From assembly GCA_963841935.1 (NCBI GenBank), contig CAWJEP010000004.1, positions 14,975-78,974 on the forward strand: a DNA stretch of 64,000 nt, read 5' to 3'. The translations under genes were made by a program, and so were the position numbers. The number at the start of each line of letters is the position of its first letter. Position 1 is the stretch's first letter. The notes under the pieces are model-generated. The model ran no database searches. It worked only from the letters and a program-made list of their open reading frames with translations, and was not told the origin of the DNA. Of this stretch, positions 42,622-58,078 are shown piece after piece. This DNA comes from an uncultured bacterium. Lineage in GTDB: Bacteria; Patescibacteriota; Minisyncoccia; Phycocordibacterales; UBA6065.

Positions 42622-42630
42622 TTTCCTAAT

Positions 42631-43023
42631 ATGACAGACCCGATTTCAGATTTAATCATCCGCATTCAGAACGCTTCCAGAGCGGGAAAGGAATCGGTCG
42701 CTGTGCTTGATTCAAATATGGCTTTCGCCGTTTTGGAAAAACTTTCGACTCGCGGATTTGTCGGAAAACCGAAGAGAGTATTGAAAGGAAAAATAAAAAC
42801 AATAGAGGTTGCTCTCGTTTACAAAGCCGACAAATCTCCCCGCATAAAGGGCGTGAAGCGCTATTCGAAACTTTCAAAGCGTCTCTACAAAGGTTTCCGC
42901 GAAATTCACAGCGTCAAGCAGGGCTTCGGCTCGATGATAGTTTCAACGCCTAAAGGCATTCTCGCCGACGACGAAGCCAGAAAGGAAAAAGTCGGCGGCG
43001 AAATTCTTTTCTCCATTTGGTAA
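42631..43023 (+). CDS. rpsH: ribosomal protein S8
   Basis: MTDPISDLIIRIQNASRAG and C-terminal GGEILFSIW. Confidence 0.9.
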   Translation: MTDPISDLIIRIQNASRAGKESVAVLDSNMAFAVLEKLSTRGFVGKPKRVLKGKIKTIEVALVYKADKSPRIKGVKRYSKLSKRLYKGFREIHSVKQGFGSMIVSTPKGILADDEARKEKVGGEILFSIW

Positions 43024-43036
43024 TTTAAATATTTTT

Positions 43037-43564
43037 ATGTCGCGCATAGGAAAAAAACCAATAACCCTTCCCGAAAAAACCACCGTCTCCGTGACGGAGC
43101 ATCTAGTCACGGTCAAAGGGCCTTTGGGCGAGCTCTCCCGCGTTGTGCCTTCGGGCATCAACATTGATATTAAGGAAAATGTCGTGACGGTTACCGCCCC
43201 GAATCCGGAGAAAGACGCTTTGTGGGGCACGATTACCGCTCACATAAGAAATATGGTCGCGGGCGTTAACAAACTATATGAAAAGAAACTCGTCGTTGAA
43301 GGCATCGGTTTCAAAGCCGATGTCAAAGGCACGGATCTCGTGATGGCTCTCGGATTTTCTCATCCGGTAGTCGTGCCGATTCCGAAAGGCCTCAAAGTTT
43401 TTTCGGATAAAAACGTCATTACGGTTTCCGGCATCGACAAGGAGCTCGTCGGCAATTTTACGGCATCGGTCAGGGCGATGAAAAAGCCGGAGCCGTACAA
43501 AGGCAAGGGTATTCATTATGAAGGCGAAGTTATCCGCCGAAAGCAGGGCAAGAAAGCGGCTTAA
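43037..43564 (+). CDS. rplF: ribosomal protein L6
   Basis: MSRIGKKPITLP…VTVKGPLGEL. Confidence 0.9.
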   Translation: MSRIGKKPITLPEKTTVSVTEHLVTVKGPLGELSRVVPSGINIDIKENVVTVTAPNPEKDALWGTITAHIRNMVAGVNKLYEKKLVVEGIGFKADVKGTDLVMALGFSHPVVVPIPKGLKVFSDKNVITVSGIDKELVGNFTASVRAMKKPEPYKGKGIHYEGEVIRRKQGKKAA

Positions 43565-43569
43565 AATTT

Positions 43570-43917
43570 ATGAAGAAAAACAGCAAAACAGAAAAAAAAG
43601 ACCGACGGCATGTGAAAATTCGCACGCGCGTTTTCGGCACGGCGGAGCGTCCGAGACTTTCCATTTTTAAGTCAAATAAATTTATGTACGCCCAGCTTAT
43701 CGACGACGAAGCGGGCAAGACTCTCGCCTCAGCTTCTTCCGTATCGCTTAAAAAAGGCACGAAGTCCGTTCAGGCGAAAGAAGTCGGCGCGCATATCGCT
43801 ACCAAAGCCAAAGCGGCGAAAATTTCCAAAGTCGTTTTTGATCGCGGCGGCTTTGCTTACAAAGGTCGAGTGAAAAATGTCGCGGAAGGCGCACGCGAGG
43901 GCGGACTTATATTTTAA
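43570..43917 (+). CDS. rplR: ribosomal protein L18
   Basis: RPRLSIFKSNKFMYAQLIDDEAGKTLASASS. Confidence 0.85.
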   Translation: MKKNSKTEKKDRRHVKIRTRVFGTAERPRLSIFKSNKFMYAQLIDDEAGKTLASASSVSLKKGTKSVQAKEVGAHIATKAKAAKISKVVFDRGGFAYKGRVKNVAEGAREGGLIF

Positions 43918-43926
43918 TAATCATTT

Positions 43927-44577
43927 ATGACCGACGAAATCAAAAAAACAGAAAAAGAAGTTATCGTTCCGGTCGCTGAAGTGGAAGCGATAGTCGAAGA
44001 AGTTGCCGCTGTGGTTCCGGAGGTTGCGGCGGAGGTAAACGGGGCGGACCGCGGCAGACGTCCTGCGCGAGGCGGCCGTCGCGGCGGCAAAAAGCCGGAG
44101 CGCGGAGCTCGCACCAAGCCGGAATTCGACAACAAAATTCTCGCCATCAGGCGCGTGGCTCGCGTCGTCGCCGGCGGCCGCCGATTTAATTTTAGCGTTG
44201 CCCTGGTTGCCGGAGATAAAAAAGGCAAAGTGGGCGTTGGTTTGGGAAAAGCCGGCGACACGGCTTTAGCCATCGACAAAGCTCTTCGCGACGCCAAGAA
44301 ACACATGATAGTCGATAAACACCACGAAAGATATGTCCGTTCCGCACGAATCTTTCGCCAAATATTCGAGCGCTCGCGTCTCCATCGCGCCTTCGAAAGA
44401 CCGCGGACTCGTCGCGGGCTCTGCCGTGCGCACCGTGCTCGAACTCGCGGGGATTTCAAACGTCGTGGGGAAAATAGTTTCTCCTTCAAAAAACAAACTA
44501 AACATTGCCCGCGCGACGATCAAAGCGCTCGAAGGTCTCAATCTGGTAAAACCGCCGAGAGTTTCCGCCAAATAATT
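43927..44577 (+). CDS. rpsE: ribosomal protein S5; frame broken by an indel near 44310-44333
   Basis: N-terminal part RVARVVAGGRRFNFSVALVAGDKKGKVGVGLGKAGDTALAIDKALRDAKKHMIVDK in one frame. C-terminal part MSVPHESFAKYSSARVSIAPS…VRTVLELAGISNVVGKI in ORF 44333..44575. The 362-aa track ORF 43927..45015 is read-through artefact. Confidence 0.8.
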
Positions 44578-44587
44578 TCAAAATCAT

Positions 44588-45022
44588 ATGCAAATGAACA
44601 CCCTCAAACGAAATACAAAAAGAATGACCTCCCGCCAGAGAGGTCGTGGAGGCAAGCGCGGCAAAACCTCGGGCCGCGGTACGAAAGGCATGCTCGCGCG
44701 CGCCGGCTACAAACGCCGACCGGAAATGCGCGACATCATAAAGAGATTGCCGAAACTTCGCGGTTACGCTTTCAACAGCTTTCAGAAAAAAGTTTCCATC
44801 GTTTCTCTCGATTTGCTAGAAAAGCATTTCAAATCCGGCGCCGAAGTTTCTCCGGCGACACTTCTCTCCGCCGGCCTCATAAAGAAAGAGAGCGGCATCT
44901 TTCCCCGAATCAAAATTCTGTCCGACGGCGAAATCGGGAAGAAACTTTCAGTCTCAGGATGCGCAGTTTCGAAAGGCGCGAAAGAAAAAATAGAAAAAGC
45001 CGGCGGAAGCGTTAGTCAATAA
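44588..45022 (+). CDS. rplO: ribosomal protein L15
   Basis: Gly/Arg-rich N-terminus RGRGGKRGKTSGRGTKG. It follows rpsE directly, with no L30 gene between. Confidence 0.85.
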   Translation: MQMNTLKRNTKRMTSRQRGRGGKRGKTSGRGTKGMLARAGYKRRPEMRDIIKRLPKLRGYAFNSFQKKVSIVSLDLLEKHFKSGAEVSPATLLSAGLIKKESGIFPRIKILSDGEIGKKLSVSGCAVSKGAKEKIEKAGGSVSQ

Positions 45023-45026
45023 AACA

Positions 45027-46298
45027 ATGGACGTATTTTTCAAAAAACTTTCTCTCATTTGGCACGACAAGGAGCTTCGGAAACGCCTGCTTTTCATTTT
45101 TCTAATTTTGGCGATTTTCAGACTCCTGACCACCATTCCCATTCCGGGCATTGACCCCACGCGACTCGCGACCTTGATAGGCAACAGCCAATTTTTGGGA
45201 CTTCTAAACCTTTTCTCCGGCGGCGGTCTCTCAAATCTCTCCATAATGATGCTCGGCGTCGGACCTTACATTACGGCCACCATCATAATGCAGCTTTTGA
45301 CCCTTATGTCGCCGAAACTCAAGGCAATGTATCAGGAAGAAGGCGAAGCTGGCAGAGCAAAATTCTCCCAGTATTCGCGCATTCTCACTTTACCTCTCGC
45401 CCTTCTTCAAGCCACGGGTTTTCTCATACTTTTACAGCGCGAAAGCGTCGTTTCCTCGCTTTCGATATTCAGTTTTGTTACCAACATCATCGTAATTGCC
45501 GGCGGTTCGATGCTTCTTATGTGGCTCGGCGAAATGATAACGGAGTTTGGCGTCGGTAACGGCGTCTCGCTCATCATCTTTGCCGGCATCATCGCGCGAC
45601 TGCCGACGGCGCTCTCCGGCGTCGCGGCGACTTACGACCCGTCGCAACTTCCTCTTTACGTCGCGCTCATCGCTTTGTCGCTCGCGGTCATTTACGCCGT
45701 TGTCTACGTGACGGAAGCGGAGCGTCCGGTGCCGGTGACTTATGCCAAACAGGTGAGAGGTCAGAAAGTTTACGGCGGCGTTTCCACCTATATTCCTCTT
45801 CGCGTCAATCAAGCCGGCGTTATTCCGATTATCTTCGCTCTATCCATACTGCTTTTTCCGCAAATGATTTTTAACTTCTTCGCCACTTCCACGAACGCTA
45901 TTTTGGCGAACATTTCCAATATTGGTCTCTCAATCGTGAACAACCCGTGGCTTTACGACACCGGTTATTTCATTCTCGTCTTCCTCTTTACCTATTTCTA
46001 CACGGCCGTGACTTTCGACCCAGTTGTCATATCAGAAAACCTCCAGAGAAGCGGTGCCTTTGTTCCCGGAGTGCGTCCCGGACACCCGACGGCGGAATAT
46101 CTTTCCAAAATCGTCACCCGTATTACCATGGTCGGCGCTATATTTCTCGGTATTATCGCCGTATTGCCTCTCATCCTTCGTTCCACGACCGGTAACGCTT
46201 CGTTTGCCATCGGCGGCACGGCCCTCCTCATCGTCGTCTCTGTCGTCATTGACCTCGTGAAAAACGTCGACGCCCAAGTCTCGATGCGCGAGTACTAA
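45027..46298 (+). CDS. secY: preprotein translocase subunit SecY
   Basis: Ten-TM architecture. LRKRLLFIFLILAIFRL…GIDP N-terminus. Position in the spc operon. Confidence 0.9.
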   Translation: MDVFFKKLSLIWHDKELRKRLLFIFLILAIFRLLTTIPIPGIDPTRLATLIGNSQFLGLLNLFSGGGLSNLSIMMLGVGPYITATIIMQLLTLMSPKLKAMYQEEGEAGRAKFSQYSRILTLPLALLQATGFLILLQRESVVSSLSIFSFVTNIIVIAGGSMLLMWLGEMITEFGVGNGVSLIIFAGIIARLPTALSGVAATYDPSQLPLYVALIALSLAVIYAVVYVTEAERPVPVTYAKQVRGQKVYGGVSTYIPLRVNQAGVIPIIFALSILLFPQMIFNFFATSTNAILANISNIGLSIVNNPWLYDTGYFILVFLFTYFYTAVTFDPVVISENLQRSGAFVPGVRPGHPTAEYLSKIVTRITMVGAIFLGIIAVLPLILRSTTGNASFAIGGTALLIVVSVVIDLVKNVDAQVSMREY

Positions 46299-46321
46299 TT
46301 TTCGGTTACACTTATAGGCGT

Positions 46322-46912
46322 ATGAAACAAATCACATGCGTCTTTTTTGGACGGAGCGGTTCCGGCAAAGGCACCCAGGCGGATTTGCTTTTGAGATATC
46401 TCGCGGAACACGACCCGGAAAGAAAAACTCTCTACGTCGAAACGGGTCAGCGCTTCCGTGATTTTGCCAAAAAGAAAAACTATACTTCCGGCAAAGTCAG
46501 GGAAGTTTTGGCGGCGGGCAAATTTAATCCGCCGTTTCTGCCCATATGGAACTGGACCGGATTTCTCGTGGAAAATTTTACCGGCAAGGAGCACTTGGTT
46601 TTCGACGGCGTCTGCCGCATGCCGGAAGAGGCGCCGGTATTCGATTCGGCTCTGCAGTTTTATGGTTTGGAAAAGCCGGTAATAATTCTTCTTGAAGTGC
46701 CACACACGGAAGTGAAAAAACGATTACTCAAGCGCGGTCGGTCTGACGATACCGACGAAAGAATAGACGAGAGACTTCGTTCGTTTGAAGCCACGGCACA
46801 GCCAGCGGTTAAATATTTCGAGAAAGCTCCGAGCTGTAAGTTTGTCAGCATAAACGGCGACCAATCCATCGAGGCGGTTTTTGAAGAAGTTAAAAAAGCT
46901 CTCGGAATTTAA
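46322..46912 (+). CDS. adk: adenylate kinase
   Basis: P-loop FFGRSGSGKGTQA. Operon position after secY. Confidence 0.85.
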   Translation: MKQITCVFFGRSGSGKGTQADLLLRYLAEHDPERKTLYVETGQRFRDFAKKKNYTSGKVREVLAAGKFNPPFLPIWNWTGFLVENFTGKEHLVFDGVCRMPEEAPVFDSALQFYGLEKPVIILLEVPHTEVKKRLLKRGRSDDTDERIDERLRSFEATAQPAVKYFEKAPSCKFVSINGDQSIEAVFEEVKKALGI

Positions 46913-47686
46913 ATGGCAGTCATCATAAAAACTCAAGAAGAAATAGAAAAAATGCGCGAGGGTGGCAAGCGCCACGCGCGAATTTTGCGCGAACTCTCCA
47001 AACTCGTTAAGCCGGGGATTTCTTCGCAGGAATTGGAAAATACGGCTCTAGAACTCATTAAAAAGGAGGGCGGCAAGGCGTCTTTTCTCGGATATAAGCC
47101 GTGGGGAGCGAAGTACTCGTTTCCAGCGGCGCTTTGCGTTTCAATAAACGACGAAGTCGTTCACGGAATTCCAAACGGCAATTCGTCAAAAATCTTGCGA
47201 GAAGGCGATATTGTCTCTCTCGACCTTGGGTTTACTTACAAAGGTCTCATTACCGACGCCGCCATCACGGTCGGCGTCGGTAGAATAAATCCGCAAGCGA
47301 AAAAACTTTTGGCGACGACCGAAGAAGCTATGTACGCCGGAATAAAAAAAGCAAAAGTAGGAAACACTACGGGCGATATTGGAGCGGCGGTTTTCGCCGT
47401 CGGCAAAAAAGCCGGATTCGGCGTCGTGGACATTCTCTCCGGCCATGGCGTCGGCAGATTCGTCCACGAAGACCCCTACGTGCCGAATTTCGGAGAAAAA
47501 GGCGAGGGCGAAGTTTTGAAAGGCGGAATGACCATCGCCGTCGAGCCGATGTTTAATCTCGGCACGAAAGAAATTATTTTGGAAAAAGACGGTTACACTT
47601 TTCGCACCGCGGACAAAAAAATGTCGGCGCATTTCGAGCACACTATTTTAATTACGGAAAAAGGCGCGGAGATTTTAACAAAATAA
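46913..47686 (+). CDS. map: methionine aminopeptidase type I
   Basis: Pita-bread fold motifs (GDIVSLDLGFTYKGLITD, HGVGRFVHEDP, GMTIAVEPM). Confidence 0.9.
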   Translation: MAVIIKTQEEIEKMREGGKRHARILRELSKLVKPGISSQELENTALELIKKEGGKASFLGYKPWGAKYSFPAALCVSINDEVVHGIPNGNSSKILREGDIVSLDLGFTYKGLITDAAITVGVGRINPQAKKLLATTEEAMYAGIKKAKVGNTTGDIGAAVFAVGKKAGFGVVDILSGHGVGRFVHEDPYVPNFGEKGEGEVLKGGMTIAVEPMFNLGTKEIILEKDGYTFRTADKKMSAHFEHTILITEKGAEILTK

Positions 47687-47757
47687 AATCGGGTATTTTT
47701 TCGCTTGTGCGCTCCGCTCCGACTTACGCGCTCAAAAATACCCAATTTTATTTTGTT
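47680..47757 (+). terminator. terminator hairpin containing the conserved 49-nt palindromic core (copy B)
   Basis: caaaataaaatcgg + GTATTTTTTCGCTTGTGCGCTCCGCTCCGACTTACGCGCTCAAAAATAC + ccaattttattttg. The core is 48/49 identical to copy A at 131-179. The outer stem sequence is unrelated to copy A. Confidence 0.6.
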
Positions 47758-47777
47758 TATGTTAGTATATAAATTCT

Positions 47778-48389
47778 ATGAAACACCCAAAAGAAGAACG
47801 GACGCTTATTATTGTGAAACCCGACGCGGTACAGAGAAATCTGATTGGGGAAATAATTTCCAGATTCGAAAAACTCGGCCTCAAAATCGCCGCGATTAAA
47901 ATGCTTGTGCCGACGGTGGAGCACGTGGAGGCGCATTATACCCTGGACCCGCAGTGGCGTCGGATTACGGGAGAAAAAACCATAAAAGCTTACACCGACA
48001 GGGGACTCAAGCATCCCGTTAGCGACGACCCGATAAAAGTCACCGAAATAATTTTGCAGAAACTCAAGGATTACATAGCCAGCGGTCCCGTCATACCGAT
48101 AGTTTTGGAAGGAGCGCACGCGGTGGAGGTCGTTCGCAAGCTTGTCGGCGGCACGGAGCCCCTCCGTGCCGCCGCGGTCGGCACTATCCGCGGAGATTTC
48201 GCTTTAGATTCGTATTCTATGGCCGACACGGACGGCCGCTCCGTAAGAAATCTAATTCACGCCTCCGGAAGCGTCGCCGAAGCGGATAAAGAAATCAAAC
48301 ATTGGTTCAAAAAAGAGGAAATCATCGACTATAAACTCGTGATGGAGGACATTCTATACGGCAAGAACCTTGACGGACTGCTTAAATAG
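47778..48389 (+). CDS. ndk: nucleoside diphosphate kinase with a C-terminal extension of about 50 aa
   Basis: LIIVKPDAVQRNLIGEIISRFEKLGLKIAAIKM and GSDS-like HASGS motif; 203 aa. Confidence 0.85.
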   Translation: MKHPKEERTLIIVKPDAVQRNLIGEIISRFEKLGLKIAAIKMLVPTVEHVEAHYTLDPQWRRITGEKTIKAYTDRGLKHPVSDDPIKVTEIILQKLKDYIASGPVIPIVLEGAHAVEVVRKLVGGTEPLRAAAVGTIRGDFALDSYSMADTDGRSVRNLIHASGSVAEADKEIKHWFKKEEIIDYKLVMEDILYGKNLDGLLK

Positions 48390-48454
48390 TTTTTGACTGT
48401 TTTTTTCGTATTTATCCACGTATCTTTTTTGAAAACTATTGCTTATAATTAGGC

Positions 48455-48640
48455 GGGTCAGAGAAGTGGTGTTCTATAAACCATTTTAAGGGATAGTCGT
48501 ATCGTGATGAGTTCAGTGAGCACCTTCGGGAGTTCTAAGAAACATTCGTGTGACAACCCACCTAGATTTTCTAGGGCGACCACTTCATGACCCCTCGAAA
48601 AAGCCCGATTTGCCCGCCGGCAAATCGGGCTTTTTCATTT
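48455..48640 (+). ncRNA. candidate structured 5' leader (riboswitch- or attenuator-like) ending in an intrinsic terminator just before the 48657 gene
   Basis: Possible TATAAT at 48444-48449. Long-range closing stem GGGTCAGAGAAGTGGT (48454-48469) with ACCACTTCATGACCC (48580-48594). Terminator aaaagcccgatttgcccgccggcaaatcgggcttttt at 48598-48636, 20 nt before the start codon. Confidence 0.35.
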
Positions 48641-48656
48641 CTGCTATACTTTCTCA

Positions 48657-49055
48657 ATGTTTTGGAATAAATATCTCTTGCCGTCCATCGTCGTGTTGCT
48701 TTGTATGGCCACGCTTCATCTTTTGTTCATTAAATTCTACATATATTGGACACTGCGATGGGTGGACATTCCGGTTCACATCCTCGCCGGAATTTGGGTA
48801 GTCCTGACTTTGGCGTGGATTCTCGGATGGTTAAAACCGGAGATTGAAATTCCTTTTTTTCGCGCGATTATTTGGGGACTCATCGTCGGCGGTCTTTGGG
48901 AAATCGGCGAACTAACGCTCGGAATCAATTTGGCGACCGCTCATGGATATGTCGCCGACACGATAAAAGATTTGACCGACGATGTTATCGGCGCCGCTTG
49001 CGGATTTTTCGTTGTATCATGGATGAATCGGAACAACGGCTTAAAAAACAAATGA
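48657..49055 (+). CDS. hypothetical polytopic membrane protein
   Basis: 132 aa with four TM helices. Stop overlaps the next start (ATGA). Confidence 0.5.
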   Translation: MFWNKYLLPSIVVLLCMATLHLLFIKFYIYWTLRWVDIPVHILAGIWVVLTLAWILGWLKPEIEIPFFRAIIWGLIVGGLWEIGELTLGINLATAHGYVADTIKDLTDDVIGAACGFFVVSWMNRNNGLKNK

Positions 49056-50425
49056 AACCATTTGGAAAAATAACATTTCTCGGCGGTGCGGGGGAAGCGA
49101 CGGGTTCCCATTTTATTTTTGACGTTTTGGGACATAGATACGCTGTAGATTGCGGCATAGTCCAAGGCGAAAGGTTCGCCAACGAAGAAAATTCAAAAGT
49201 TTTTCCGTACGACGTGTCGAAACTCGAAGCTTTAATCGTCACCCACGCTCACACCGACCACATCGGCAGGATTCCGAAACTCGTGGCTCAAGGTTTCAAG
49301 GGACCGATTTATTCCACGGCGGCGACGAAAGAACTTTCTTCCGCTACTTTCGACGACGCGGTAAAAATAATGACGATGGAGGCCCGAGAACTTCACAAAG
49401 AACCTCTTTATACTGGAGCAGATGTCGCGGCGGCGCTTTCGGTGTGGAAAACGGTAGATTATCACGCGCCACTGACGCTCGCACAGGGAATATCTTTCGA
49501 ACTGAAAGATTCCGGACACATTTTGGGTTCAGCGATTGTCGAGTTCTCTGTGCAATCCGAAGAAAAAATCCATAAAGTCGTCTTTACCGGCGACCTTGGC
49601 AATTCGCCATCGCTTCTTTTGCCTGATACCGAAGTCATAAATGACGCGGAGTATATGGTTATGGAAAGCGTTTATGGCGACAGGAACCATGAGCCGGCGG
49701 CCGAGCGCGACGAGACTTTCGCTAAAGCGGTCGTCGAGACAATCGCGCGAGGCGGCACGGTCATCATTCCGGCTTTTTCCATCGAACGGACGCAAGTTTT
49801 GCTCTACAGCATCGAGAAACTTTTTGAAAGCGGCAGACTTCCGAGCGTGCCGGTATTTCTCGACTCACCGCTCGCTTTAAAGGTGACGCACGTCTATGAA
49901 GAGAATACGAATCTTTTTAACGACGCGGCGCGACAAGCGGCACAGGGCCACGACCTTTTCAATTTCAAAAATCTGACGGTAGTCCGAACACCGGTGGAAT
50001 CGGCGGCGATTCACGAAAACCAGGGACCGAAAATAATTCTAGCGGGAAGCGGTATGTCGGTGGGCGGCCGAGTAATCTCTCACGAAAAGTATTATCTGGG
50101 TGACGCGAACTCCGCCATCGTATTTGTCGGCTACCAAGCCGCCGGTTCGCTTGGTCGTCGCATTGCCGACGGAGAAAAAAATGTGACAATCGACAATGTT
50201 CCCGTGACTATCCGCGCCAAAATTGTCCAAATCGACGGCTTCTCGGCGCATAAAGACAGCGACCACCTCCTCGAATTTGTTTCTCATTCGCAGAAAACGC
50301 TCAAAAAAGTTTTCGTCTGTATGGGCGAGCTTTCAAGTGAGACGTTTCTTGCTCAAAAAATCAGGGACAATTTAAATATCATCGCCGTCGTGCCCGAAGA
50401 AGGAAGCAATGCAGAGCTTGAATAA
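49052..50425 (+). CDS. metallo-beta-lactamase-fold beta-CASP ribonuclease (RNase J-like)
   Basis: ITFLGGAGEATGSHFIFD…VDCG…ALIVTHAHTDHIGRIPKL (HxHxDH) followed by beta-CASP region. The true start is the internal MKPFGK; track ORF 48872..50425 is over-extended. Confidence 0.65.
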   Translation: MKPFGKITFLGGAGEATGSHFIFDVLGHRYAVDCGIVQGERFANEENSKVFPYDVSKLEALIVTHAHTDHIGRIPKLVAQGFKGPIYSTAATKELSSATFDDAVKIMTMEARELHKEPLYTGADVAAALSVWKTVDYHAPLTLAQGISFELKDSGHILGSAIVEFSVQSEEKIHKVVFTGDLGNSPSLLLPDTEVINDAEYMVMESVYGDRNHEPAAERDETFAKAVVETIARGGTVIIPAFSIERTQVLLYSIEKLFESGRLPSVPVFLDSPLALKVTHVYEENTNLFNDAARQAAQGHDLFNFKNLTVVRTPVESAAIHENQGPKIILAGSGMSVGGRVISHEKYYLGDANSAIVFVGYQAAGSLGRRIADGEKNVTIDNVPVTIRAKIVQIDGFSAHKDSDHLLEFVSHSQKTLKKVFVCMGELSSETFLAQKIRDNLNIIAVVPEEGSNAELE

Positions 50426-50448
50426 TTTTCTCGTGATATATTGAAATC

Positions 50449-51102
50449 ATGAAAAGGATATATCTCGTCCGCCATGGGGAAAGCGAGGGAAATCTCGGAC
50501 CGTTCCGGCAAGGAGCAGACACTCCACTCTCGCCGACAGGAATCAAGCAGGCGGAGTTTGTCGCAAAACGCTTTGAAGTCATTTCAATCGATCGGGTGAT
50601 TGCTAGTACTTACCAACGTGCCAAGCATACCGCTGAAATCATAAACAAAATCATCAACAAACCGATAGAATATTCGGATCTTATCGTGGAAAGAAAAAGG
50701 CCTTCCGTGATCGTCGGCAAGCTAAAAGATGATCCCGAGGTTCTCAAGATAGAAGCTCTTATAAAGGAACATTTTCATTCTCCTGACTGGAGGTATTCGG
50801 ACGAAGAAAGTTTCAGTGATCTCAAGAATCGAGCCCTTGAAACAATAAAATATTTAGAAGGGTGTAAAGAAGAAAATATACTTCTGGTCACTCACGGGAT
50901 CTTCTCCAGGATGATTGCCAGCTGCATTATCATGGGAAAAGAACTTACCTCTCATGAATATCATAATTTATCCTTATCTCTAACCACCGATAATACGGGC
51001 ATCTCATTGTTGGAGAGGTGGGATGAATCAAAATACGATCACCCGTGGACGATTGCCACGTGGAATGATCATGAACACATTGGGGACGGGGAGGAGATAT
51101 GA
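50449..51102 (+). CDS. histidine phosphatase family protein (phosphoglycerate-mutase-like)
   Basis: IYLVRHGESEGN (RHG motif) and LLVTHGIFSRMI (second catalytic His region). Confidence 0.75.
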   Translation: MKRIYLVRHGESEGNLGPFRQGADTPLSPTGIKQAEFVAKRFEVISIDRVIASTYQRAKHTAEIINKIINKPIEYSDLIVERKRPSVIVGKLKDDPEVLKIEALIKEHFHSPDWRYSDEESFSDLKNRALETIKYLEGCKEENILLVTHGIFSRMIASCIIMGKELTSHEYHNLSLSLTTDNTGISLLERWDESKYDHPWTIATWNDHEHIGDGEEI

Positions 51103-51116
51103 CTCAAAGAAATAAT

Positions 51117-51140
51117 AAAACCGCCTTGAGGCGGTTTTTT
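51117..51140 (+). terminator. rho-independent terminator after the phosphatase gene
   Basis: aaaaccgccttgaggcggtttttt. Confidence 0.6.
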
Positions 51141-51252
51141 CGTCTGTATGGGTGAGCCGAGTTCGGAAACTTTTCTCGCACAAAAAATCCGCGACAATTT
51201 AAATATCATCGCCGTCGTGCCGGAAGAGGGAAGCAGTGCTGATTTGATATAG
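51134..51252 (+). repeat. diverged direct repeat of the 3' end of the RNase J-like gene (copy of 50309..50425), retaining the encoded C-terminal peptide
   Basis: Encodes FVCMGEPSSETFLAQKIRDNLNIIAVVPEEGSSADLI-stop. The gene encodes FVCMGELSSETFLAQKIRDNLNIIAVVPEEGSNAELE-stop. About 25 of 115 nt differ, mostly at synonymous positions. Confidence 0.7.
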
Positions 51253-51282
51253 AAAAAAACCGCCCATCGGGCGGTTTTTTTA
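51253..51282. terminator. bidirectional terminator (shared with convergent rplT)
   Basis: aaaaaaaccgcccatcgggcggttttttta. Overlaps the rplT stop codon on the minus strand. Confidence 0.7.
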
Positions 51283-51624
51283 TTTCGCGTGTTCGACGAG
51301 ACGGTCGAAGATTTCCGGATTGTGTTCGGCGAGGTCGGCGAGGATTTTGCGGTCGATGATGATGTCTTTCTTTTTCATCGCGCCCATAAATTTGGAGTAG
51401 GAGAGACCCCTGGCGTCGAGGACGGCGTTGATTTTGATAATCCATTCAGAGCGTCTCGTGCCTTTTTTGTCGCGGCGGTCGCGAAAAGCGTTTGCCCCCG
51501 CGTGAAAGACGGCTTCTTGAGCGGCGCGTTCGTTCGTCGAACGGCGGAAGCGATAACCTTTCGTCATCTTGAGAAGATTTCGGCGGTATTTGAGAGCGTT
51601 TACTCCTTTTTTTACGCGTGCCAT
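51280..51624 (-). CDS. rplT: ribosomal protein L20
   Basis: MARVKKGVNALKYRRNLLKMTKGYRFRRST… matches L20. Confidence 0.9.
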   Translation of the reverse strand: MARVKKGVNALKYRRNLLKMTKGYRFRRSTNERAAQEAVFHAGANAFRDRRDKKGTRRSEWIIKINAVLDARGLSYSKFMGAMKKKDIIIDRKILADLAEHNPEIFDRLVEHAK

Positions 51625-51651
51625 AAAATTTAATTAAAAAATGATTGGAAA

Positions 51652-51843
51652 TTAAAAACCGACGAGAAAATGAGACTTTTCTTTATTGGGAATCTTTAGA
51701 TAAGCCGTGCGTCGCTTGTTCATGGTCGCGCGTCCGCTGTCCTTCGAATTGAAGTGGTTTTGGCCCGGCTTTCTAGCGAGAATCTTGCCGTTCTTCGTGA
51801 CTTTTAGGCGCTTCGTATATGATTTGCGGGTTTTTATCGACAT
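51652..51843 (-). CDS. rpmI: ribosomal protein L35
   Basis: MSIKTRKSYTKRLKVTKNGKILARKPGQNH. The track ORF is extended upstream to 51867. Confidence 0.8.
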   Translation of the reverse strand: MSIKTRKSYTKRLKVTKNGKILARKPGQNHFNSKDSGRATMNKRRTAYLKIPNKEKSHFLVGF

Positions 51844-52022
51844 TGTGTGGAAATAAAGACGCCCCAAAGGGCGATATAAATATATTACAGGAAAACGAAA
51901 AATTGTCCAATGAGTAGTAATACATTTGACATATTTTATTTATAGTTGTAGTTTCATTTCTAAAGGGATTATTTTTATCCTTTGTACCTTTCCAAACAAC
52001 CAAACAACCACCTGAAGTAACA

Positions 52023-52403
52023 ATGAGCTCAAAAAAATCGACCTGTTCTGATTTCATTTTAGCGGCTATAAGGCGACTTCGTCAGAATTCGACATGCTTA
52101 ACGCCGGGAACTGCCGGCGGTGTCGGTCTTCAGAGACTTTTTCCTCTTCTTTGCGAAATATATCCTCGACAAGAAGCTGAAAAGCACATTAACTTGTTGA
52201 TCAAGGGTGAATCTCTCGTATTGGTCTACAATTCGCCTTTGATGGGCGTGCCTCGGGAGAAGTTACCGAAATTACCCTTGAAACTTGTATCGGGCGAGAA
52301 TCATCGCTACCATTTGTACATCAAGGCCGATGGTTTGCCCAGAAAAGTTACCAAGATGAGTAACAGGCGAAAAATTGCCGAGGAGATTCTCGCCAGTCTT
52401 TAA
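52023..52403 (+). CDS. hypothetical protein encoded antisense within the infC-rpmI spacer
   Basis: 126-aa ORF with a Cys-containing N-terminus and its own terminator. It sits on the strand opposite the flanking infC and rpmI-rplT genes. Confidence 0.5.
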   Translation: MSSKKSTCSDFILAAIRRLRQNSTCLTPGTAGGVGLQRLFPLLCEIYPRQEAEKHINLLIKGESLVLVYNSPLMGVPREKLPKLPLKLVSGENHRYHLYIKADGLPRKVTKMSNRRKIAEEILASL

Positions 52404-52408
52404 ACCCA

Positions 52409-52439
52409 AAGCCGTCCTTTCAGCGGGGCGGCTTTTTTT
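52409..52439. terminator. hairpin terminator between convergent gene ends
   Basis: gccgtcctttcagcggggcggc followed by TTTTTTTA. Overlaps the infC stop codon. Confidence 0.45.
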
Positions 52440-52950
52440 ATGCTCTTTCAACTATGACGGAGAGACCTTTCGGGCCTTTCTGCGGCTTTTCGCTAATTTT
52501 ATATTTTTCAGTGAGAAGCACCAGCAGGCGTTCGAGGCGCTCTTCGAGAAATTTCGGGTCGAGATATTTGGCGCGGCCGGGAAGGAAAAGTTCGAGCTTG
52601 ATGCGGTGACCTTCGGCAAGCCACTCGCTAGCTTTCTTGGCTTTGAGGGCGAGGTCGTGTTCGCCGGTGCCGATTTTTACCTGCAGACTTTTGACTTCGA
52701 CTTCGTGGGTTTTTGATTTGGCAACCTTGGCGCGCTTGTTTTCTTCATACTGAAATTTTCCGAAATCCATTATTTTCGCTACGGGAGGGACAGCGTTCGG
52801 GGAAATCTCTATAAGGTCAAAACCGGCGTCGTGGGCGCGATTTAGGGCTTCCGAGAGGGGAATTACGCCTAGGTTTTCGCCCTCCGCTCCTATAACGCGG
52901 ACTTCGGTGGCTCTGATTTGATGGTTGACGCGGATTCGTTCTTTACTCAA
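52438..52950 (-). CDS. infC: translation initiation factor IF-3
   Basis: INHQIRATEVRVIGAEGENLGVIPLSEALNRAHDAGFDLIEISPNA…KFQYEENKR and C-domain EVKSLQVKIGTGEHDL. Confidence 0.85.
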   Translation of the reverse strand: MSKERIRVNHQIRATEVRVIGAEGENLGVIPLSEALNRAHDAGFDLIEISPNAVPPVAKIMDFGKFQYEENKRAKVAKSKTHEVEVKSLQVKIGTGEHDLALKAKKASEWLAEGHRIKLELFLPGRAKYLDPKFLEERLERLLVLLTEKYKISEKPQKGPKGLSVIVERA

Positions 52951-52958
52951 AAGGTTTT

Positions 52959-53729
52959 TTGTTTAGCCGTGATATCTTCTCATATTCAGGAGATTTTGCA
53001 ATTGGTATAATCTTTCCGATGTCTGACGTAACAATTCCAATCGCATTTCTCGCCGGACTCGTGTCATTTCTCTCGCCGTGCGTCTTGCCGATTATTCCGG
53101 GATTTCTGGCTTATCTCGCCGGCACGTCTACGGACGGAAAACAAAACAAGGCCGGAATATTTTTTCAAAGCTTGTGGTTCGTCGTCGGATTTTCCGTCGT
53201 CTTCGCGATTCTCGGCGTCCTTCTCAACACCGTTCTCGTGCATGTGGCGCAAAGCGTCGAGACGTGGCTCTCATACATCGGTGGCGCGATTGTAATTATT
53301 TTCGGACTTTACCTCACGGGACTTTTGCATATAGGATTTCTCGAAAATACTCACGTGATGCGCGTGGACACCAAATCAAAGCGGCCAAGATTCGTCACAT
53401 CGTTTCTTTTTGGTTTCGCTTTCGCCGCCGGCTGGACGCCGTGCGTCGGGGCGACTCTCGGCGCCATCATTGGTCTCGCCGCGACCTCTCCCGGCTCGGC
53501 CTTCGCACTCCTGTTTTCTTACGCCGTCGGCCTCGGCGTACCGTTTCTTCTCGTGGGGCTTTTCGCTTCGCAAGCGGCGGGTTTTTTCGAACGGCACACC
53601 GTGGGATTCTCCTATGTGAACAAAATTTTCGGCGCGCTTTTAATAATCATCGGCATTTTGGTTTTTACCGGTTCGCTTTCCGACATCGCCAATTTTAGTT
53701 TCGTCAATTCTTTAATCCTTCATCAATAA
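52959..53729 (+). CDS. ccdA: cytochrome c-type biogenesis / thiol-disulfide transporter CcdA (DsbD family)
   Basis: FLAGLVSFLSPCVLPIIPGFLAYLAG and a second conserved Cys region AGWTPCVGATLGAI. Confidence 0.75.
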   Translation: MFSRDIFSYSGDFAIGIIFPMSDVTIPIAFLAGLVSFLSPCVLPIIPGFLAYLAGTSTDGKQNKAGIFFQSLWFVVGFSVVFAILGVLLNTVLVHVAQSVETWLSYIGGAIVIIFGLYLTGLLHIGFLENTHVMRVDTKSKRPRFVTSFLFGFAFAAGWTPCVGATLGAIIGLAATSPGSAFALLFSYAVGLGVPFLLVGLFASQAAGFFERHTVGFSYVNKIFGALLIIIGILVFTGSLSDIANFSFVNSLILHQ

Positions 53730-54781
53730 TGAAAACTTCAAAAACTGTTTCGCTCATAGTAGTTTTGCTTCTAGTCGTTTCGGCAATAGCTTACATAGAA
53801 ATGAATAAGGTTTCAGGTGGCGTCTCCGTCGTCGGAAACGATTTTGCGAGCTCGACCGTCGCCATGGCTTCTTCTTCGCGCGCGACTCTCGTCGCGCAAA
53901 AGGCACTACAGTATCCGCGTGCCAAAGAGCTCGTGGATCCGACCGGTTTCATCAACACACCGAACGGTTTGCCCATTACCATTTCGCAATACATAGGCAA
54001 AGATGTTATTCTCGTCGATTTCTGGACATATAGCTGTATCAACTGCCAGCGCACCATTCCATATCTAAATACTTGGTATTCGAAATATCAAGGCGACGGT
54101 TTCGTCATCATCGGCGTTCACACTCCGGAGTTTGATTTTGAAAAAGACATAAATAATGTAAAAGCGGCGACGCAAGAATACGGCATAAAATATCCCGTTG
54201 TCCTCGACAGCGATATGGGCACATGGAACGCTTACGGCAATCTCTATTGGCCGCGGGAATATCTCATCGACATAGACGGTTTTATTCGCGAAGACCACAT
54301 CGGCGAAGGCGGTTATAGCGACACGGAACAGACGATTCAAAAACTTCTCATGGAACGCGCGGATGAGCTAGGGTTAAGCGCGAGCGGCATCGCCACCACG
54401 ACTGTTTCCAATCCCGCGCCCCAAATGCAGACCATAAGCCAGGAAACTTATTTCGGCGCCTATAGAAATACAAATCCCGACGGTTCGAGCAACGCTTCGT
54501 ATCTTTCGGGCGCGTGGAATATTTTGGACCAGTACGCCGAGACTTCCGGTCAGGCGAAACTCGTTTTTCCTTTCACGGCAAAATACGTCTACATTGTAGC
54601 TTCGTCCACTTTGCCGGCCGACGTGACGGTCAAAGTGGATGGAAAGGCGATAAACACCGTCGAAATATCGAACGCGCAGCTTTACACTCTCGTCTCGCAA
54701 TCTGATGTCGAATCCCACACTCTTGAACTCGACATACCGAAATCGGGCCTAGATGTTTTTACTCTGACTTTTGGTTCGTAA
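53729..54781 (+). CDS. thioredoxin-fold thiol-disulfide oxidoreductase (TlpA/ResA-like) with C-terminal extension
   Basis: Signal-anchor plus VILVDFWTYSCINCQRTIPYL (CxxC) and YPVVLD…NLYWPREYLIDIDGFIRE. Paired with ccdA. Confidence 0.7.
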   Translation: MKTSKTVSLIVVLLLVVSAIAYIEMNKVSGGVSVVGNDFASSTVAMASSSRATLVAQKALQYPRAKELVDPTGFINTPNGLPITISQYIGKDVILVDFWTYSCINCQRTIPYLNTWYSKYQGDGFVIIGVHTPEFDFEKDINNVKAATQEYGIKYPVVLDSDMGTWNAYGNLYWPREYLIDIDGFIREDHIGEGGYSDTEQTIQKLLMERADELGLSASGIATTTVSNPAPQMQTISQETYFGAYRNTNPDGSSNASYLSGAWNILDQYAETSGQAKLVFPFTAKYVYIVASSTLPADVTVKVDGKAINTVEISNAQLYTLVSQSDVESHTLELDIPKSGLDVFTLTFGS

Positions 54782-55208
54782 GCTCGTGTTTCTTGTGCAT
54801 CTCGAAGCTTAGAAAATAATTGGCGAGGAAATTCCAAACTCCCACGATGATGGCGGTGACGACTCGAGAGCGAATCGGCGGCACATGAAGGACAAAAGTA
54901 AAAATGAAAACCAGAGCGAGCGTCAGGATTAAACCAATGAGCGCCACAAACATGAAATACGCGTAGCCGTCCTTAAACTCTCGGTCGCTGTCTTTGAAGA
55001 CGAACATATGGACGGCGAAATATTGTATCGTCGTACCGATGACGAAAGTCACGCCGACGGCACAAAGATACCAAAATCCTCGCGTGTGCATGTGTCGCAG
55101 GAGAAATATGAGCGCGACCACTTCCAAAGCCGTCGTCAGTATTCCGGGAATTAAATATTTGAAAAAATCCTCTCCGAAAGTTCGTATGTTCATAGCGGGA
55201 ATCGCCAT
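54759..55208 (-). CDS. small membrane protein, possibly GtrA-like
   Basis: 149 aa with four TM helices, basic N-terminus and C-terminal charged tail. Weak family call. Confidence 0.4.
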   Translation of the reverse strand: MAIPAMNIRTFGEDFFKYLIPGILTTALEVVALIFLLRHMHTRGFWYLCAVGVTFVIGTTIQYFAVHMFVFKDSDREFKDGYAYFMFVALIGLILTLALVFIFTFVLHVPPIRSRVVTAIIVGVWNFLANYFLSFEMHKKHELTNQKSE

Positions 55209-55238
55209 TATAGCGAAAATTCCGTCTCAATACAATTA

Positions 55239-55644
55239 TGGTGGAGATGGGCGGAGTTGAACCGCCGTGCAGACGAGGACCTCATATGGTTCTACGCGAT
55301 GTAGAGATTTTCTTTTGTTTAAGCGTTCACGCTATGAAAGTCACAAAATACGTGGACGCCGATTTTCTTTCCGCTATTCGCGGTTCGGCCGTGCGTCGAA
55401 ACGCTGCACGTCTATTCCGGGCGGATGACGCTTGACTCACTTTTGTCCGGAAGTGTTGGTGAGAAGCGCCGTCTAGACGTAAATTACGCGTAGACAGGAG
55501 CAAAAGCGAAGGCTCCGAAAGGAGACGCTACGGATTTTGCTTTCGAAATGCTGTTTGCATTTGAATTTTCCGAAAGTTTAAAGAGTTCTCGGAGCTCTAT
55601 CGCGCGCATAAGAGGGGAATCGTCTGTCGATGCCTGTCATCCCC
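55239..55644 (-). ncRNA. ssrA: transfer-messenger RNA (tmRNA)
   Basis: Minus-strand 5' end GGGGATGACAGGCATCGACAGACGA follows the canonical GGGG.UGA…GG.UCGAC.G pattern. 3' end GGCGGTTCAACTCCGCC CATCTCC A CCA forms a T-arm plus acceptor strand complementary to 5' GGGGATG (one G-U pair). Internal candidate tag ORF GCA AAC AGC…GTC TAC GCG TAA. smpB lies immediately upstream on the same strand. Confidence 0.75.
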
Positions 55645-55653
55645 ATATGTAAA

Positions 55654-56097
55654 TTATTTTTTCAACGAACGACCGATGTCTCGCTCGGTATCGCGTTTCT
55701 TTATGGACTCTCTCTTGTCGAACTTTTTCTTGCCCCTGACGACACCGAGTGAGACTTTTATCTTACCATTTTTATTATACATCGACAAGGGTACTATTGT
55801 CAAACCTTTCTTGGAATCAACGACCGCGAGCGCGGCGATTTCTTTTTTCGAAAGCAAAAGGCGGCGAAGCCTTTCTGGCTCATAGTCGGCCGGAGTGTTG
55901 CCGGCTTGATAGGCAGGTATGGAAAGTCCGGAGAGAAAGGCTTCGCCGCCGCGGACGAGAACGTAACTGCCGTCGAGAGCCACGCTTTTCGTTCGGAGAG
56001 CTTTTACTTCGTGTCCGGCAAGCTCGATACCGGCTTCGACGGTGTCCAGGATTTCGTAATCAAAACGGACTTTTTTGTTCGTGGCGATATCGGGCAT
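55654..56097 (-). CDS. smpB: SsrA-binding protein
   Basis: MPDIATNKKVRFDYEILDTVEAGIELAGHEVKALR…GSYV…GLSIPAY matches SmpB. The track ORF is over-extended to 56259. Confidence 0.85.
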   Translation of the reverse strand: MPDIATNKKVRFDYEILDTVEAGIELAGHEVKALRTKSVALDGSYVLVRGGEAFLSGLSIPAYQAGNTPADYEPERLRRLLLSKKEIAALAVVDSKKGLTIVPLSMYNKNGKIKVSLGVVRGKKKFDKRESIKKRDTERDIGRSLKK

Positions 56098-56137
56098 AAG
56101 GAAAGTATAACAAAAAGAAAAATAGATATTTTTCTTT

Positions 56138-58078
56138 TTGCCTATTTTGTGTATAATACCCAAACTTATGGCTGTTCCAGCGAAAAAAGACGGCGGCAAC
56201 AAAAAGAAGCCAAAAACGCTTTGGCAGTTTCTCGGCAACATAGGCGCTACGTTTCTCATATTTTTCGCCGTGCTCGCGCTTTATTCTTTCATTTCGGGTT
56301 CCGGCGCTCCGGCTCCCGTTACGATTCCGATTTCCGCTCTGGCATCCGATGTTTCCTCCGGCAAAGTTAAATCAATAGACATAAACGGCGATGACCTCGC
56401 GGTTACGTATCAAGACGGCACGGACAAAGTTTCTAAAAAAGAAACAGACCTCGCGCTTTCGCAAACTTTGGTCAATTACGGCGTGCCCGCGGCAAAAATA
56501 GAAGCCGTGAATATTACCGTCGAGAAGCAAAGCAGTTTCACTTATTGGTTCGAAATACTCGCTCCGACTATAATCTCCGTTTTGTTCATCGCCATCTTCA
56601 TCTGGTTTATCATGCGTCAAGCCAAGGGCGCCGGCATGCAGGCTTTTTCTTTCGGCCAATCGAAAGCCCGCATCTCTTTTCCGGGAGACAAAAAACAAAA
56701 AGTCACGTTTAAAGATGTCGCCGGCACCAAAGAAGCCAAACAGGAACTTTCGGAAATCGTCGATTTCCTGAAAAATCCGAAAAAATTTCTTGAGATAGGC
56801 GCGGTCATTCCCAAGGGCGTGCTTCTCATGGGCGCGCCCGGCACCGGCAAAACGCTTCTCGCCCGCGCGGTCGCGGGCGAAGCCAACGTGGCTTTCTTTT
56901 CCATTAGCGGCTCGGAATTCGTGGAAATGTTCGTGGGAGTCGGAGCCAGCCGCGTACGCGACCTTTTCAAAATGGCCAAACAAGCGGCGCCGGCAATTAT
57001 TTTCGTCGATGAAATCGACGCCGTCGGTCGCGTACGCGGCACGGGCGTGGGCGGTGGAAACGATGAGAGGGAACAAACACTGAACCAAATCCTAGTCGAG
57101 ATGGACGGCTTTGAGCCGAACGAAAAAGTCATCGTCATGGCGGCGACGAACCGTCCCGACGTTCTCGACCCGGCGCTTCTTCGTCCGGGAAGATTCGACC
57201 GTCGCGTGGTTATCGATTTGCCCGATCGTGCCGACCGCGAAGAAATTCTGAAAATTCACGGCGCGAAAAAGCCGTTTGCCGAAGACGTAAACCTGCAGGT
57301 TGTCGCCGAACGCACCCCCGGATTTTCCGGCGCCGACCTTTATTCGCTTATGAATGAAAGCGCCATACTTGCCGCGCGGGAAAACAGGACGAAAGTTTCC
57401 CAATACGACCTCATTCGCGCCATAGAAAAAGTCATGCTCGGTCCCGAACGCAAAAGTCACATTCTTTCAAAACAGGAGAAAAAAATTACCGCTTATCACG
57501 AAGCCGGTCACGCGCTCGTTTCGTCCGTGCTTACTCACGCCGACCCGGTGCATAAGATTTCAATAATTTCTCGCGGTCGCGCGGCGGGATACACGCTTCA
57601 TTTGCCGCTTGAGGATAGACGCCTGCAATCGAAGAAAGAATTTCTAGACGACATCGCGGTTTCTCTCGGCGGCTACGTGGCGGAGAAAATGATTTTCGGC
57701 GACGTGACGACTGGACCGAGCAACGACCTTCAGGTTTCGACCGCTCTGGCTCGCGATATGGTGGCAAAATACGGAATGTCGGAAAAAGTCGGCGTCTTGG
57801 CCCTAGAAGGCATGGGCGGCAGACCGCTCTTCGGCAAAGGAATGGAAGAGCATGATTATTCCGAAAAAAGCGGCGCCGTAATTGATACCGAAGTCCAAAG
57901 AATTATGTCCGAAGGATACAAACGAGCGGAGAAAGTCATTAAAGAAAAAAGAAAAGCCCTCGATGCCATAGCGGAACGCCTCATCGAGACGGAAACCATT
58001 GAACGCGAAGAATTCGAAAAGATTTTGGTCGTGAACGGTATCACGCCCAAGAAAAAACAGGAAGAAAAAGTTTTGTAA
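56138..58078 (+). CDS. ftsH: ATP-dependent zinc metalloprotease FtsH
   Basis: Two N-terminal TM helices, AAA module [23 protein letters not shown], second region of homology (SRH) and HEAGHAL zinc motif. Confidence 0.9.

Follow-up and report, generated by a model that had tools for sequence, protein, structure and literature searches.

The locus described here lies in a window of 64,000 nt (contig CAWJEP010000004.1) from a Paceibacterota lineage of the candidate phyla radiation (CPR), which, like all the sequences it was compared with, comes from a metagenome assembly. At its center is an intact gene for a beta-CASP metallo-beta-lactamase ribonuclease, followed by a short spacer, a gene for a histidine phosphatase, a terminator (T1), a second copy of the last 38 codons and stop of the ribonuclease gene, and another terminator (T2) that abuts the stop codon of the convergent rplT gene. 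The gene end that is in use is called copy A and the orphan one downstream copy B, or the relic; L-numbers stand for related contigs or loci and P-numbers for related proteins. As discussed below, this arrangement probably arose when a module of about 0.8 kb from a related species recombined into the site and left the resident gene end stranded behind it.

The ribonuclease contains the Lactamase_B, Beta-Casp and RMMBL domains of Pfam. The original prediction had called it RNase J-like, a name that has to be given up. Its best solved relative is the Thermus ribonuclease TTHA0252 (PDB 3ie2, E = 3.7e-74), with the CPSF-73-type enzymes next, while the RNase J entries of the PDB match over 113 residues only (E = 3e-6) and the RNase J models stay far below their cut-offs (TIGR00649 at 26.6 bits against 400, RnjA at 22.8 against 820). 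RNase J also has an architecture of about 555 residues with a C-terminal domain, as compared with the 457 residues found here. In the motif C region (50318-50332) the clade has CMGE, constant in all the Paceibacterota homologues examined, where the canonical RNA-acting beta-CASP enzymes have HGE. The phosphatase is a clear PF00300 member (108.2 bits, cut-off 21.7) with LVRHGESEGN and VTHG in its translation; all the NCBIfam equivalogs scored below cut-off. As the original prediction had it, the cargo is this single gene with a terminator of its own, a hairpin and T-run at 51117-51140 following the coding sequence at 50449-51102, and we propose that the phosphatase may be co-transcribed behind the ribonuclease gene and ended at T1. 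The stem of T1 is a perfect 9 bp with a 4-nt loop, and its T-run passes straight into copy B. The stem and loop are of the CCGCCTTNNGGCGG type, which also stands after the phosphatase in L032, L038 and L039, and is found in L023/L029 as well; T2 is of a different type.

The gene-end repeat is real. Anchored on both stop codons, the two copies align without a gap at a period of 827 nt and are identical at 91 of 117 nt (78%). A self-BLASTN of the whole window gives the pair an E value of 3.7e-25, and neither this search nor tblastn found any further gene-end duplicate in the 64 kb, so the pair is the sole case. The start given before for the second copy, 51134, is 3 nt early, since 51135-51136 belong to the T-run of T1. 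The repeat begins at the conserved KKVFVCMGE segment of the RMMBL domain, and the left edge of both copies is an identical stretch of 16 nt, TTTTCGTCTGTATGGG. The longest identical run between the copies, however, is a core of 29 nt (P = 0.007 with 25 differences placed at random), in which both copies agree with the L030 type at 27 of the 29 nt. The translations are VFVCMGELSSETFLAQKIRDNLNIIAVVPEEGSNAELE for copy A and FFVCMGEPSSETFLAQKIRDNLNIIAVVPEEGSSADLI for copy B, each followed by the stop. Eighteen codons differ, 13 of them synonymously, leaving five amino-acid changes; the synonymous ones include swaps between the serine codon families (TCA-AGT in one copy, AGT-TCG in the other), and the differences fall on codon positions 1, 2 and 3 in the numbers 6, 5 and 15. 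By the Nei-Gojobori method, the synonymous divergence (dS) is 0.87, the nonsynonymous divergence (dN) 0.157 and dN/dS 0.18. When 25 substitutions were placed at random on copy A, five or fewer amino-acid changes were obtained in none of the 20,000 trials (mean 16.7), so that the synonymous bias noticed earlier holds up. Copy B has the clade consensus residue at every amino-acid position, with no frameshift and no internal stop. It also holds an ATG-initiated open reading frame (ORF) of 34 codons (51148-51252), which is probably silent; no promoter-like site was found for it.

Table 1. Features of the locus and further genes of the window (positions count from the first letter of the window)
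Feature	Position	Strand	Description
beta-CASP metallo-beta-lactamase ribonuclease gene	49052..50425	+	intact, 457 aa, TTHA0252/CPSF-73 type; present 3' end is copy A
repeat copy A	50310..50425	+	functional last 38 codons and stop of the beta-CASP gene
identical core	50366..50394 = 51193..51221	+	29 nt; candidate crossover or gene-conversion tract
spacer	50426..50448	+	23 nt, TTTTCTCGTGATATATTGAAATC; always accompanies the phosphatase module
histidine-phosphatase (branch 1) gene	50449..51102	+	intact, 217 aa, RHG and THG motifs; module cargo
terminator T1	51117..51140	+	AAAACCGCC-TTGA-GGCGGTTTT and T-run; right end of module (sequence, hairpin scan)
repeat copy B	51137..51252	+	orphan beta-CASP 3' end (relic) between two terminators
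terminator T2	51253..51281	.	A-run, CCGCCC-ATC-GGGCGG, T-run; resident, bidirectional, common to beta-CASP and convergent rplT
rplT (ribosomal protein L20)	51280..51624	-	convergent with beta-CASP; conserved downstream border of the site
ORF without a family	52023-52403	+	126 aa; own terminator at 52408-52435
tmRNA gene	55239-55644	-	RF00023, 103 bits

The origin of this arrangement becomes clearer from the relatives, in which the order map, ndk, (DUF2238-like gene), beta-CASP and then convergent rplT, rpmI and infC is conserved across the loci examined by tblastn (rplT was identified in their gene calls by Pfam L20). The site between the ribonuclease gene and rplT occurs in three states. In type i it is empty, and a terminator and rplT come within 0-25 nt of the end of the beta-CASP gene (L030/L031, L023-25, L026/27). 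The pair L030/L031 is the closest backbone to the window, at 83-86% nucleotide identity, and L030 is collinear with it over 13.5 kb (window 42618-56173). In the second state, filled without a relic, a phosphatase from the cluster at 90% identity or more to the window protein lies between the ribonuclease gene and rplT, and the 39-40 nt from the phosphatase stop to rplT hold a terminator (L032-L037, L038/L039). The window and its Logan twin alone are filled and have the relic in addition. The twin, L017 (run ERR11630400), is an independent contig 99.96% identical to the window; it spans copy A, the phosphatase and T1 and then runs 74 nt into copy B. Since it was assembled separately and also crosses the T1-copy B junction, this junction is not the product of one assembler alone. 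The empty sites support the earlier idea that the phosphatase is an insertion, and the gene is patchily present among similarly related species. Its relatives at 90% identity or more (P0242-P0244) are all located between beta-CASP and rplT, while homologues beyond these are at 62-65% identity (L018-L022) and occur among unrelated accessory genes, with no adjoining beta-CASP gene.

In more distant relatives the gap is filled with unrelated genes, for a LOG-like product, small membrane proteins and a P-loop protein. The loci with other cargo there include L002/4/5/7/8, which have the LOG-like gene, and L012, L015, L028 and L029, which have other ORFs. Each relative's own beta-CASP 3' end was sought downstream of its gene in 16 loci, those with other cargo included, and no relic was found in any of them. 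The single match to a search with the copy-B peptide, the 34-aa ORF P0245, was rejected as a second relic; it is the tail of a nonsense-mutated beta-CASP gene. In that locus, L040, which belongs to the L029 lineage (99.8% identical), a TAA codon at 628-630 replaces the GAA of the relatives 49 codons before the normal stop, so that the last 34 codons appear in the gene calls as a mini-ORF of their own; the truncation is at strain level and falls shortly before KKVFVCMGE. The gap of the same lineage is occupied by an ORF of about 50 aa with a hydrophobic product (MTNKETTQPEE...; L029 1673-1833, L040 781-940). The terminator and rplT end after this ORF are 100% identical to L032 over 55 nt, though the beta-CASP genes are only 78.5% identical, a pattern that hints at further recombination at the beta-CASP/rplT junction.

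The pieces of the locus in the window resemble different relatives. Over the whole ribonuclease gene the window is nearest to L030/31 (83%, against 79% for L032). The tail of copy A, ending in AELE and the stop (50395-50425, GAGCTTGAATAA), matches the filled lineage L032 at 28 of 31 nt, and the spacer TTTTCTCGTGATATATTGAAATC is identical to that of L032 (23/23), with 22 of 23 nt in L038/L039. The tail of copy B, ending in SSADLI and the stop, matches L030/L029 at 26-27 of 31 nt, and T2 with the adjoining rplT end is identical over about 45 nt to the terminator directly after beta-CASP in the empty-site L030. Within copy A the informative sites switch cleanly, from 10 L030-like sites in the middle to 7 L032-like sites in the tail. 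Further to the left, the LSS block of copy A (50331-50339, CTT TCA AGT, the L-type) is as in L030, L029 and L039, and the PSS block of copy B (51158-51166, CCG AGT TCG, the P-type) as in L032 and L023. On these few informative sites, copy A is made up of an L030-like LSS block, an L030-like middle and an L032-like tail, and copy B of an L032/L023-like PSS block, an L030-like middle and an L030-like tail. The left block of copy A also agrees exactly, over 23 nt, with that of the L038/39 module. A search for a breakpoint upstream of the repeat, by sliding windows and informative sites across the whole beta-CASP gene, is too noisy at 75-83% identity, the only clear switch being the L032-like last 25 nt or so.

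These comparisons change how the synonymous bias should be read. It had been taken to imply purifying selection on both copies in this genome. Yet the dS between the copies (0.87) equals that of the beta-CASP gene body between species (0.95 for the window and L030, 1.1-2.3 for other pairs), and each copy resembles a different relative; the divergence has therefore been inherited from two genomes. It would have arisen while each copy was a working gene end in a different genome, and no selection on the orphan is needed. Neutral drift of copy B to a dS of about 0.4 would predict about 9 amino-acid changes, and as the consensus residue is kept at every position, copy B has not been long in neutral drift. 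That the relic still looks intact is explained by a recent date of the event, compared with the divergence of the two copies.

There are also signs that the phosphatase unit has moved between species. About 0.8 kb long, the module starts with the final ~100 nt of the ribonuclease gene and continues through the 23-nt spacer and the phosphatase gene, with T1 at its right end. Between L038 and L039, from two samples of one study, a tract of 810 nt is 100% identical; it starts 9 nt inside the left edge of the window repeat and ends in the terminator loop. To its right the two contigs are 88% identical, and to its left they are too diverged to appear among their mutual BLAST matches. Compared between the three lineages that have it, the module shows 88% identity, and the adjacent beta-CASP body 76-78% in the same comparisons. 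The dS of the phosphatase (0.49-0.79) is 2-4 times below that of the beta-CASP body (1.3-2.25), and also below that of infC (0.9-1.2), for the same genome pairs. From the identical tract, the lower dS and the patchy presence we conclude that the unit of gene end, phosphatase and terminator spread horizontally after the species had diverged. That other species have the unit at the same site, and that it has passed between them, counts in support of the earlier interpretation. To judge from the loci compared, it would usually have spread by clean replacement. Viral contigs contained no relative of the phosphatase and no copy of the spacer sequence. Scans of the JGI (Joint Genome Institute) metagenomes gave 0 matches, both for the junction of the terminator with TTTTCGTYTGYATGGG (and of T1 with TTTTCGTC) and, in degenerate form, for the copy-B haplotype (MGEPSSETFLAQKIRDNLNI).

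Putting these findings together, we consider it likely that a module from a related species recombined into the site and stranded the resident 3' end behind it. The ancestral arrangement would have been that of L030, with beta-CASP, T2 and convergent rplT, and the donor a related species with the phosphatase between beta-CASP and rplT. In three other lineages the ~0.8-kb module would have cleanly replaced the resident 3' end; in the window it would have been added. The ribonuclease gene would now end in module-derived sequence and stay intact, with the phosphatase behind it and terminated by T1, and the resident end, copy B, would have been shifted to its place downstream, between T1 and T2, and is probably silent there. 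The original prediction is supported here: the inserted DNA brought a replacement for the 3' end of the ribonuclease gene, and what lies downstream is the end that it displaced, as opposed to a target-site duplication in decay.

As to how the module was added, we lean tentatively toward a single crossover of a circularized fragment, and prefer it to homology-facilitated illegitimate recombination (HFIR). A donor fragment of about 827 nt might have been closed at a TTTT microhomology between the T-run of T1 and GTTTTCGTC, and the circle might then have integrated by one homologous crossover of the Campbell type in or near the 29-nt core. The product would have a copy A with a resident left part and a donor tail, and a copy B with a donor left part and a resident tail. 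Such a crossover predicts the reciprocal block pattern and needs only parental haplotypes that exist: the combination of L-left, N-middle and ADLI tail is seen in nature in L030/L029, and that of P-left and AELE tail in L032. The block combinations actually present in copies A and B are found in none of the other lineages outside the window. The 29-nt core, improbable as a chance run, also speaks for this route. In E. coli, duplications of a homologous segment of 109-950 bp have been traced to a single crossover with a circular molecule (PMC3240628). The DNA would probably have entered by natural competence; genes for competence and recombination are widespread in Patescibacteria, and in Saccharibacteria natural competence has been demonstrated (PMC10633639/PMC10187176; PMC12455944).

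It should be pointed out that several observations weigh against this account. The donor and the pre-insertion genome of the window species lie outside the sampled set, the nearest known module to that of the window is only 88.5% identical, and the 100% identity of L038 and L039 could have been inflated by assembly in mixed populations. The informative sites in the 116 nt are few, clustered and partly contradictory, with position 17 breaking the pattern, and the 23-nt match of the left block of copy A to L038/39 fits a copy A that is wholly module-derived. The known P-type donor, L032, matches the middle block at only 17 of 29 nt; for a crossover at that place one would have to assume an unsampled donor or a conversion tract. 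Moreover, 116 nt at about 78% identity is a poor substrate for RecA, and we know of no mechanism by which a circle of 0.83 kb would form in these organisms. The polarity, a module entering an empty-site genome as opposed to a type-i fragment entering a filled one, is itself inferred, and the 116 nt hold too few independent informative sites to settle the choice between a single crossover and HFIR.

Several other explanations can account for parts of the same evidence. The closest is HFIR of a linear donor fragment, whose left end would have paired with homologous sequence in or upstream of the 3' region of beta-CASP and whose T1 T-run would have been joined illegitimately at TTTT 116 nt before the resident stop, making copy A wholly donor and copy B wholly resident. 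We think this rather unlikely, if far from negligible. The junction, GGCGGTTTTTT/CGTCTG, has the short microhomology that such a join calls for, the T-run of T1 overlapping the TTTT of GTTTTCGTCTG; the left block of copy A has its 23-nt identity to the L038/39 module; CPR bacteria may plausibly take up linear DNA by competence; and HFIR has been proposed for analogous module displacements (PMC5361080). Yet it would require the haplotypes L, N, AELE and P, N, ADLI, which occur in no other lineage, and leaves the identical core of 29 nt (P = 0.007) unexplained. HFIR is also predicted to delete recipient sequence, while here the 3' end is kept as copy B, and the duplications on record were traced to single crossovers with circles (PMC3240628). 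The reverse polarity, in which the ancestor already had the phosphatase and an empty-site fragment (copy B, T2 and part of rplT) entered by a crossover in rplT and an illegitimate join at the T-run of T1, would end in an identical structure, and we hold it to be improbable. The window is indeed collinear with L032 across beta-CASP and the phosphatase at 82%, and about 45 nt of T2 and the rplT end are the same as in L030; the identity to L030 over 51137-51911 (86.4%) is, however, no higher than that of the backbone (83.5-86.6%), and the signs of horizontal spread (the lower dS, the 100% identity of L038 and L039) are in the module.

The original prediction favored a site-specific integrative element, or a decayed island, whose attP would carry the target gene's 3' end (site GTTTTCGTCTGTATGGG). 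An end supplied by the element, a displaced original end and the 16 identical nt at the left edge are what one would expect of it, and the left boundary even recurs within 9 nt in the L038/L039 exchange. That boundary, though, falls on the most conserved nucleotides (those coding for KKVFVCMGE), a natural point for a homologous crossover. The insert bounded by the repeats is 827 nt (50310-51136) with one ORF, and no integrase was found in the 13.5-kb block collinear with L030, whose genes are all housekeeping ones (ribosomal proteins, SecY, ADK, MAP, NDK, beta-CASP, L20, IF3, DsbD, a thioredoxin-like protein, GtrA, MCRA and SmpB). T1 is a plain 9-bp hairpin without attC-like features, the module is not in viral contigs, and three lineages carry it with neither a second copy nor an att-like scar, which is what plain homologous replacement would give. 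For these reasons an element of the integrase type is not supported, its chance being slight. A variant is that the ~0.8-kb unit is a discrete mobile cassette without an integrase, with the ends G/TTTT at the site coding for KKVFVCMGE and G/TTTT after the hairpin; it would excise as a circle and be re-inserted at the same site in different Paceibacterota by host recombination, the window being an unresolved co-integrate. This we find improbable. If true, CPR bacteria would possess a minimal cassette of a new class, one that carries a gene end. An assembly or strain-mixing chimera of co-occurring empty and filled populations may come to mind, given that the source contig is metagenome-assembled and that the breaks of several related contigs inside beta-CASP point to mixed populations. 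But all that the T1-copy B junction has in common with any normal arrangement is a T-run of ~6 nt, and so short a stretch would not mislead a de Bruijn assembler; moreover, the Logan contig from a different assembler crosses it at 99.96% identity, so that a chimera is very improbable. Least probable of all, and scarcely credible, is a duplication in situ with both copies under selection, for example as a 34-aa peptide or a regulatory RNA. It would go with the intact copy B, its ATG ORF and the mostly synonymous differences, but the relic is in no other genome, copy B lies between two terminators with no promoter-like site, and the two copies resemble different species, which is impossible for an in-situ origin.

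How does the arrangement, on the preferred reading of a recombined module and a stranded resident end, compare with known systems? The nearest is the C-terminal displacement of rhs, cdiA and the effector-immunity genes of type VI secretion systems, in which a new 3' end comes in with the gene following it and the old end is orphaned downstream (Jackson et al. 2009 as cited in PMC5361080; Kirchberger et al. 2017, PMC5361080). There, too, entry is through homology with the conserved upstream part of the gene, and clean replacement and displacement both occur in related strains; HFIR or homologous replacement have been put forward as the route (PMC5361080). The differences are that the target here is a housekeeping beta-CASP gene and the cargo a histidine phosphatase instead of a toxin tip with its immunity gene, that the replaced end encodes a near-identical peptide with no functional diversification, and that there is a single displacement in a CPR host and not an array. 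A polymorphic-toxin system proper was rejected on the conserved RMMBL end (34 of 38 aa identical in copies A and B), the PF00300 cargo and the absence of a toxin domain and immunity gene pair. With a Campbell-type insertion the locus shares the direct duplication of 116 nt on both sides of the insert (109-950 bp in E. coli; PMC3240628) and possibly, on the few informative sites, reciprocal chimeric blocks; it differs in having no plasmid or replicon, in a presumed circle of ~0.83 kb that is hypothetical, and in a homology of only ~78% with at most 29 nt perfect. HFIR in natural transformation (S. pneumoniae, Acinetobacter baylyi and P. stutzeri; PMC3240628) likewise has a homology anchor on one side and microhomology on the other, here TTTT at the T-run of T1, but it typically deletes the recipient sequence that is here duplicated and retained.

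There is some likeness to integrative elements as well. The attP of islands and phages that target tRNA or tmRNA genes carries a replacement 3' gene end, and Williams reportedly dealt in 2002 with elements that target a gene's 3' end with a replacement copy. Such elements restore the gene with their own sequence, put the displaced end at the far side and leave direct repeats, with empty sites in relatives; the locus in the window differs from them in having no integrase, an insert of just 827 nt, and the same cargo at the same site elsewhere without a second copy. An integron gene cassette would likewise consist of one ORF of ~0.8 kb with a hairpin after it, and might pass through a circular intermediate. 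This candidate was rejected, since T1 is a perfect 9-bp terminator stem without attC features, the junction reads GTTTTTT and not GTTRRRY, neither IntI nor attI is present, and the syntenic block has no integrase. We regard the locus as a new instance of C-terminal displacement, this time in a CPR bacterium and in its housekeeping ribonuclease gene; it does not amount to an element of a new kind.

A few other observations were made in the window and its relatives. The DUF2238-like gene upstream of beta-CASP (window 48652-49053, compared with L030 5995-6006) is missing in L030/L031. On the other side, the window has a second single-gene insertion relative to L030 (51912-52435), which lies between infC and rpmI, breaks the minus-strand infC-rpmI-rplT cluster and contains the family-less ORF of Table 1; no relic or target duplication is visible there, and L032 and L028 have other DNA at the same spot. 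Two sites in the window (47677-47757 and 115-195) have a long hairpin, with stems of 24 bp and a conserved loop of 33 nt, TCGCTTGTGCGCTYCGCTCCGACTTACGCGCTC. The former lies just after map and before ndk, and the stems differ between the two hairpins but stay complementary. At the same map-ndk position, with the same flanks, L026 (4642-4721) and L027 (2130-2210) have the hairpin with its loop reverse-complemented, a sign of an invertible loop or of some other structured element; a comparison with Rfam gave no family, only sub-threshold hairpin noise. Upstream of ndk, the window (42600-47700), L030 and L026 have secY-adk-map. L031 (1-5100) encodes the same beta-CASP protein as L030 but has genes like those of type IV secretion systems (DUF8128, TraG/VirD4-like) directly upstream of ndk, as does L023 (183-4713); this block has the appearance of a conjugative-type element, or else of a rearrangement, at the border of the map-ndk hairpin site. 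A gene for MCRA (oleate-hydratase-like) stands beside the tmRNA gene in L030 (10809-12434) and is not in the window (55219/55235). ARAGORN reported no tRNA or tmRNA genes in the 64 kb; the tmRNA gene in Table 1 is the RF00023 match. Finally, the C-terminal ~120 residues of ORF 28165-29286 are 52-55% identical to the translation of 38837-39159, in two ORFs some 10 kb away, either as a paralogous domain or as a gene fragment.

The locus also carries a caution: a synonymous bias between a gene end and a nearby orphan copy is no proof of selection on the orphan, since two orthologues from different genomes, once set next to each other, will show that pattern as a matter of course. At this one locus the empty site, the clean replacement and the insertion with a displaced end are all visible, and it could be used as a marker of inter-species recombination in these uncultured bacteria. 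More broadly, it offers a natural example of how the ultra-small genomes of CPR bacteria such as the Paceibacterota may gain single accessory genes by recombination between species at the junction of core genes, without the machinery of a mobile element.

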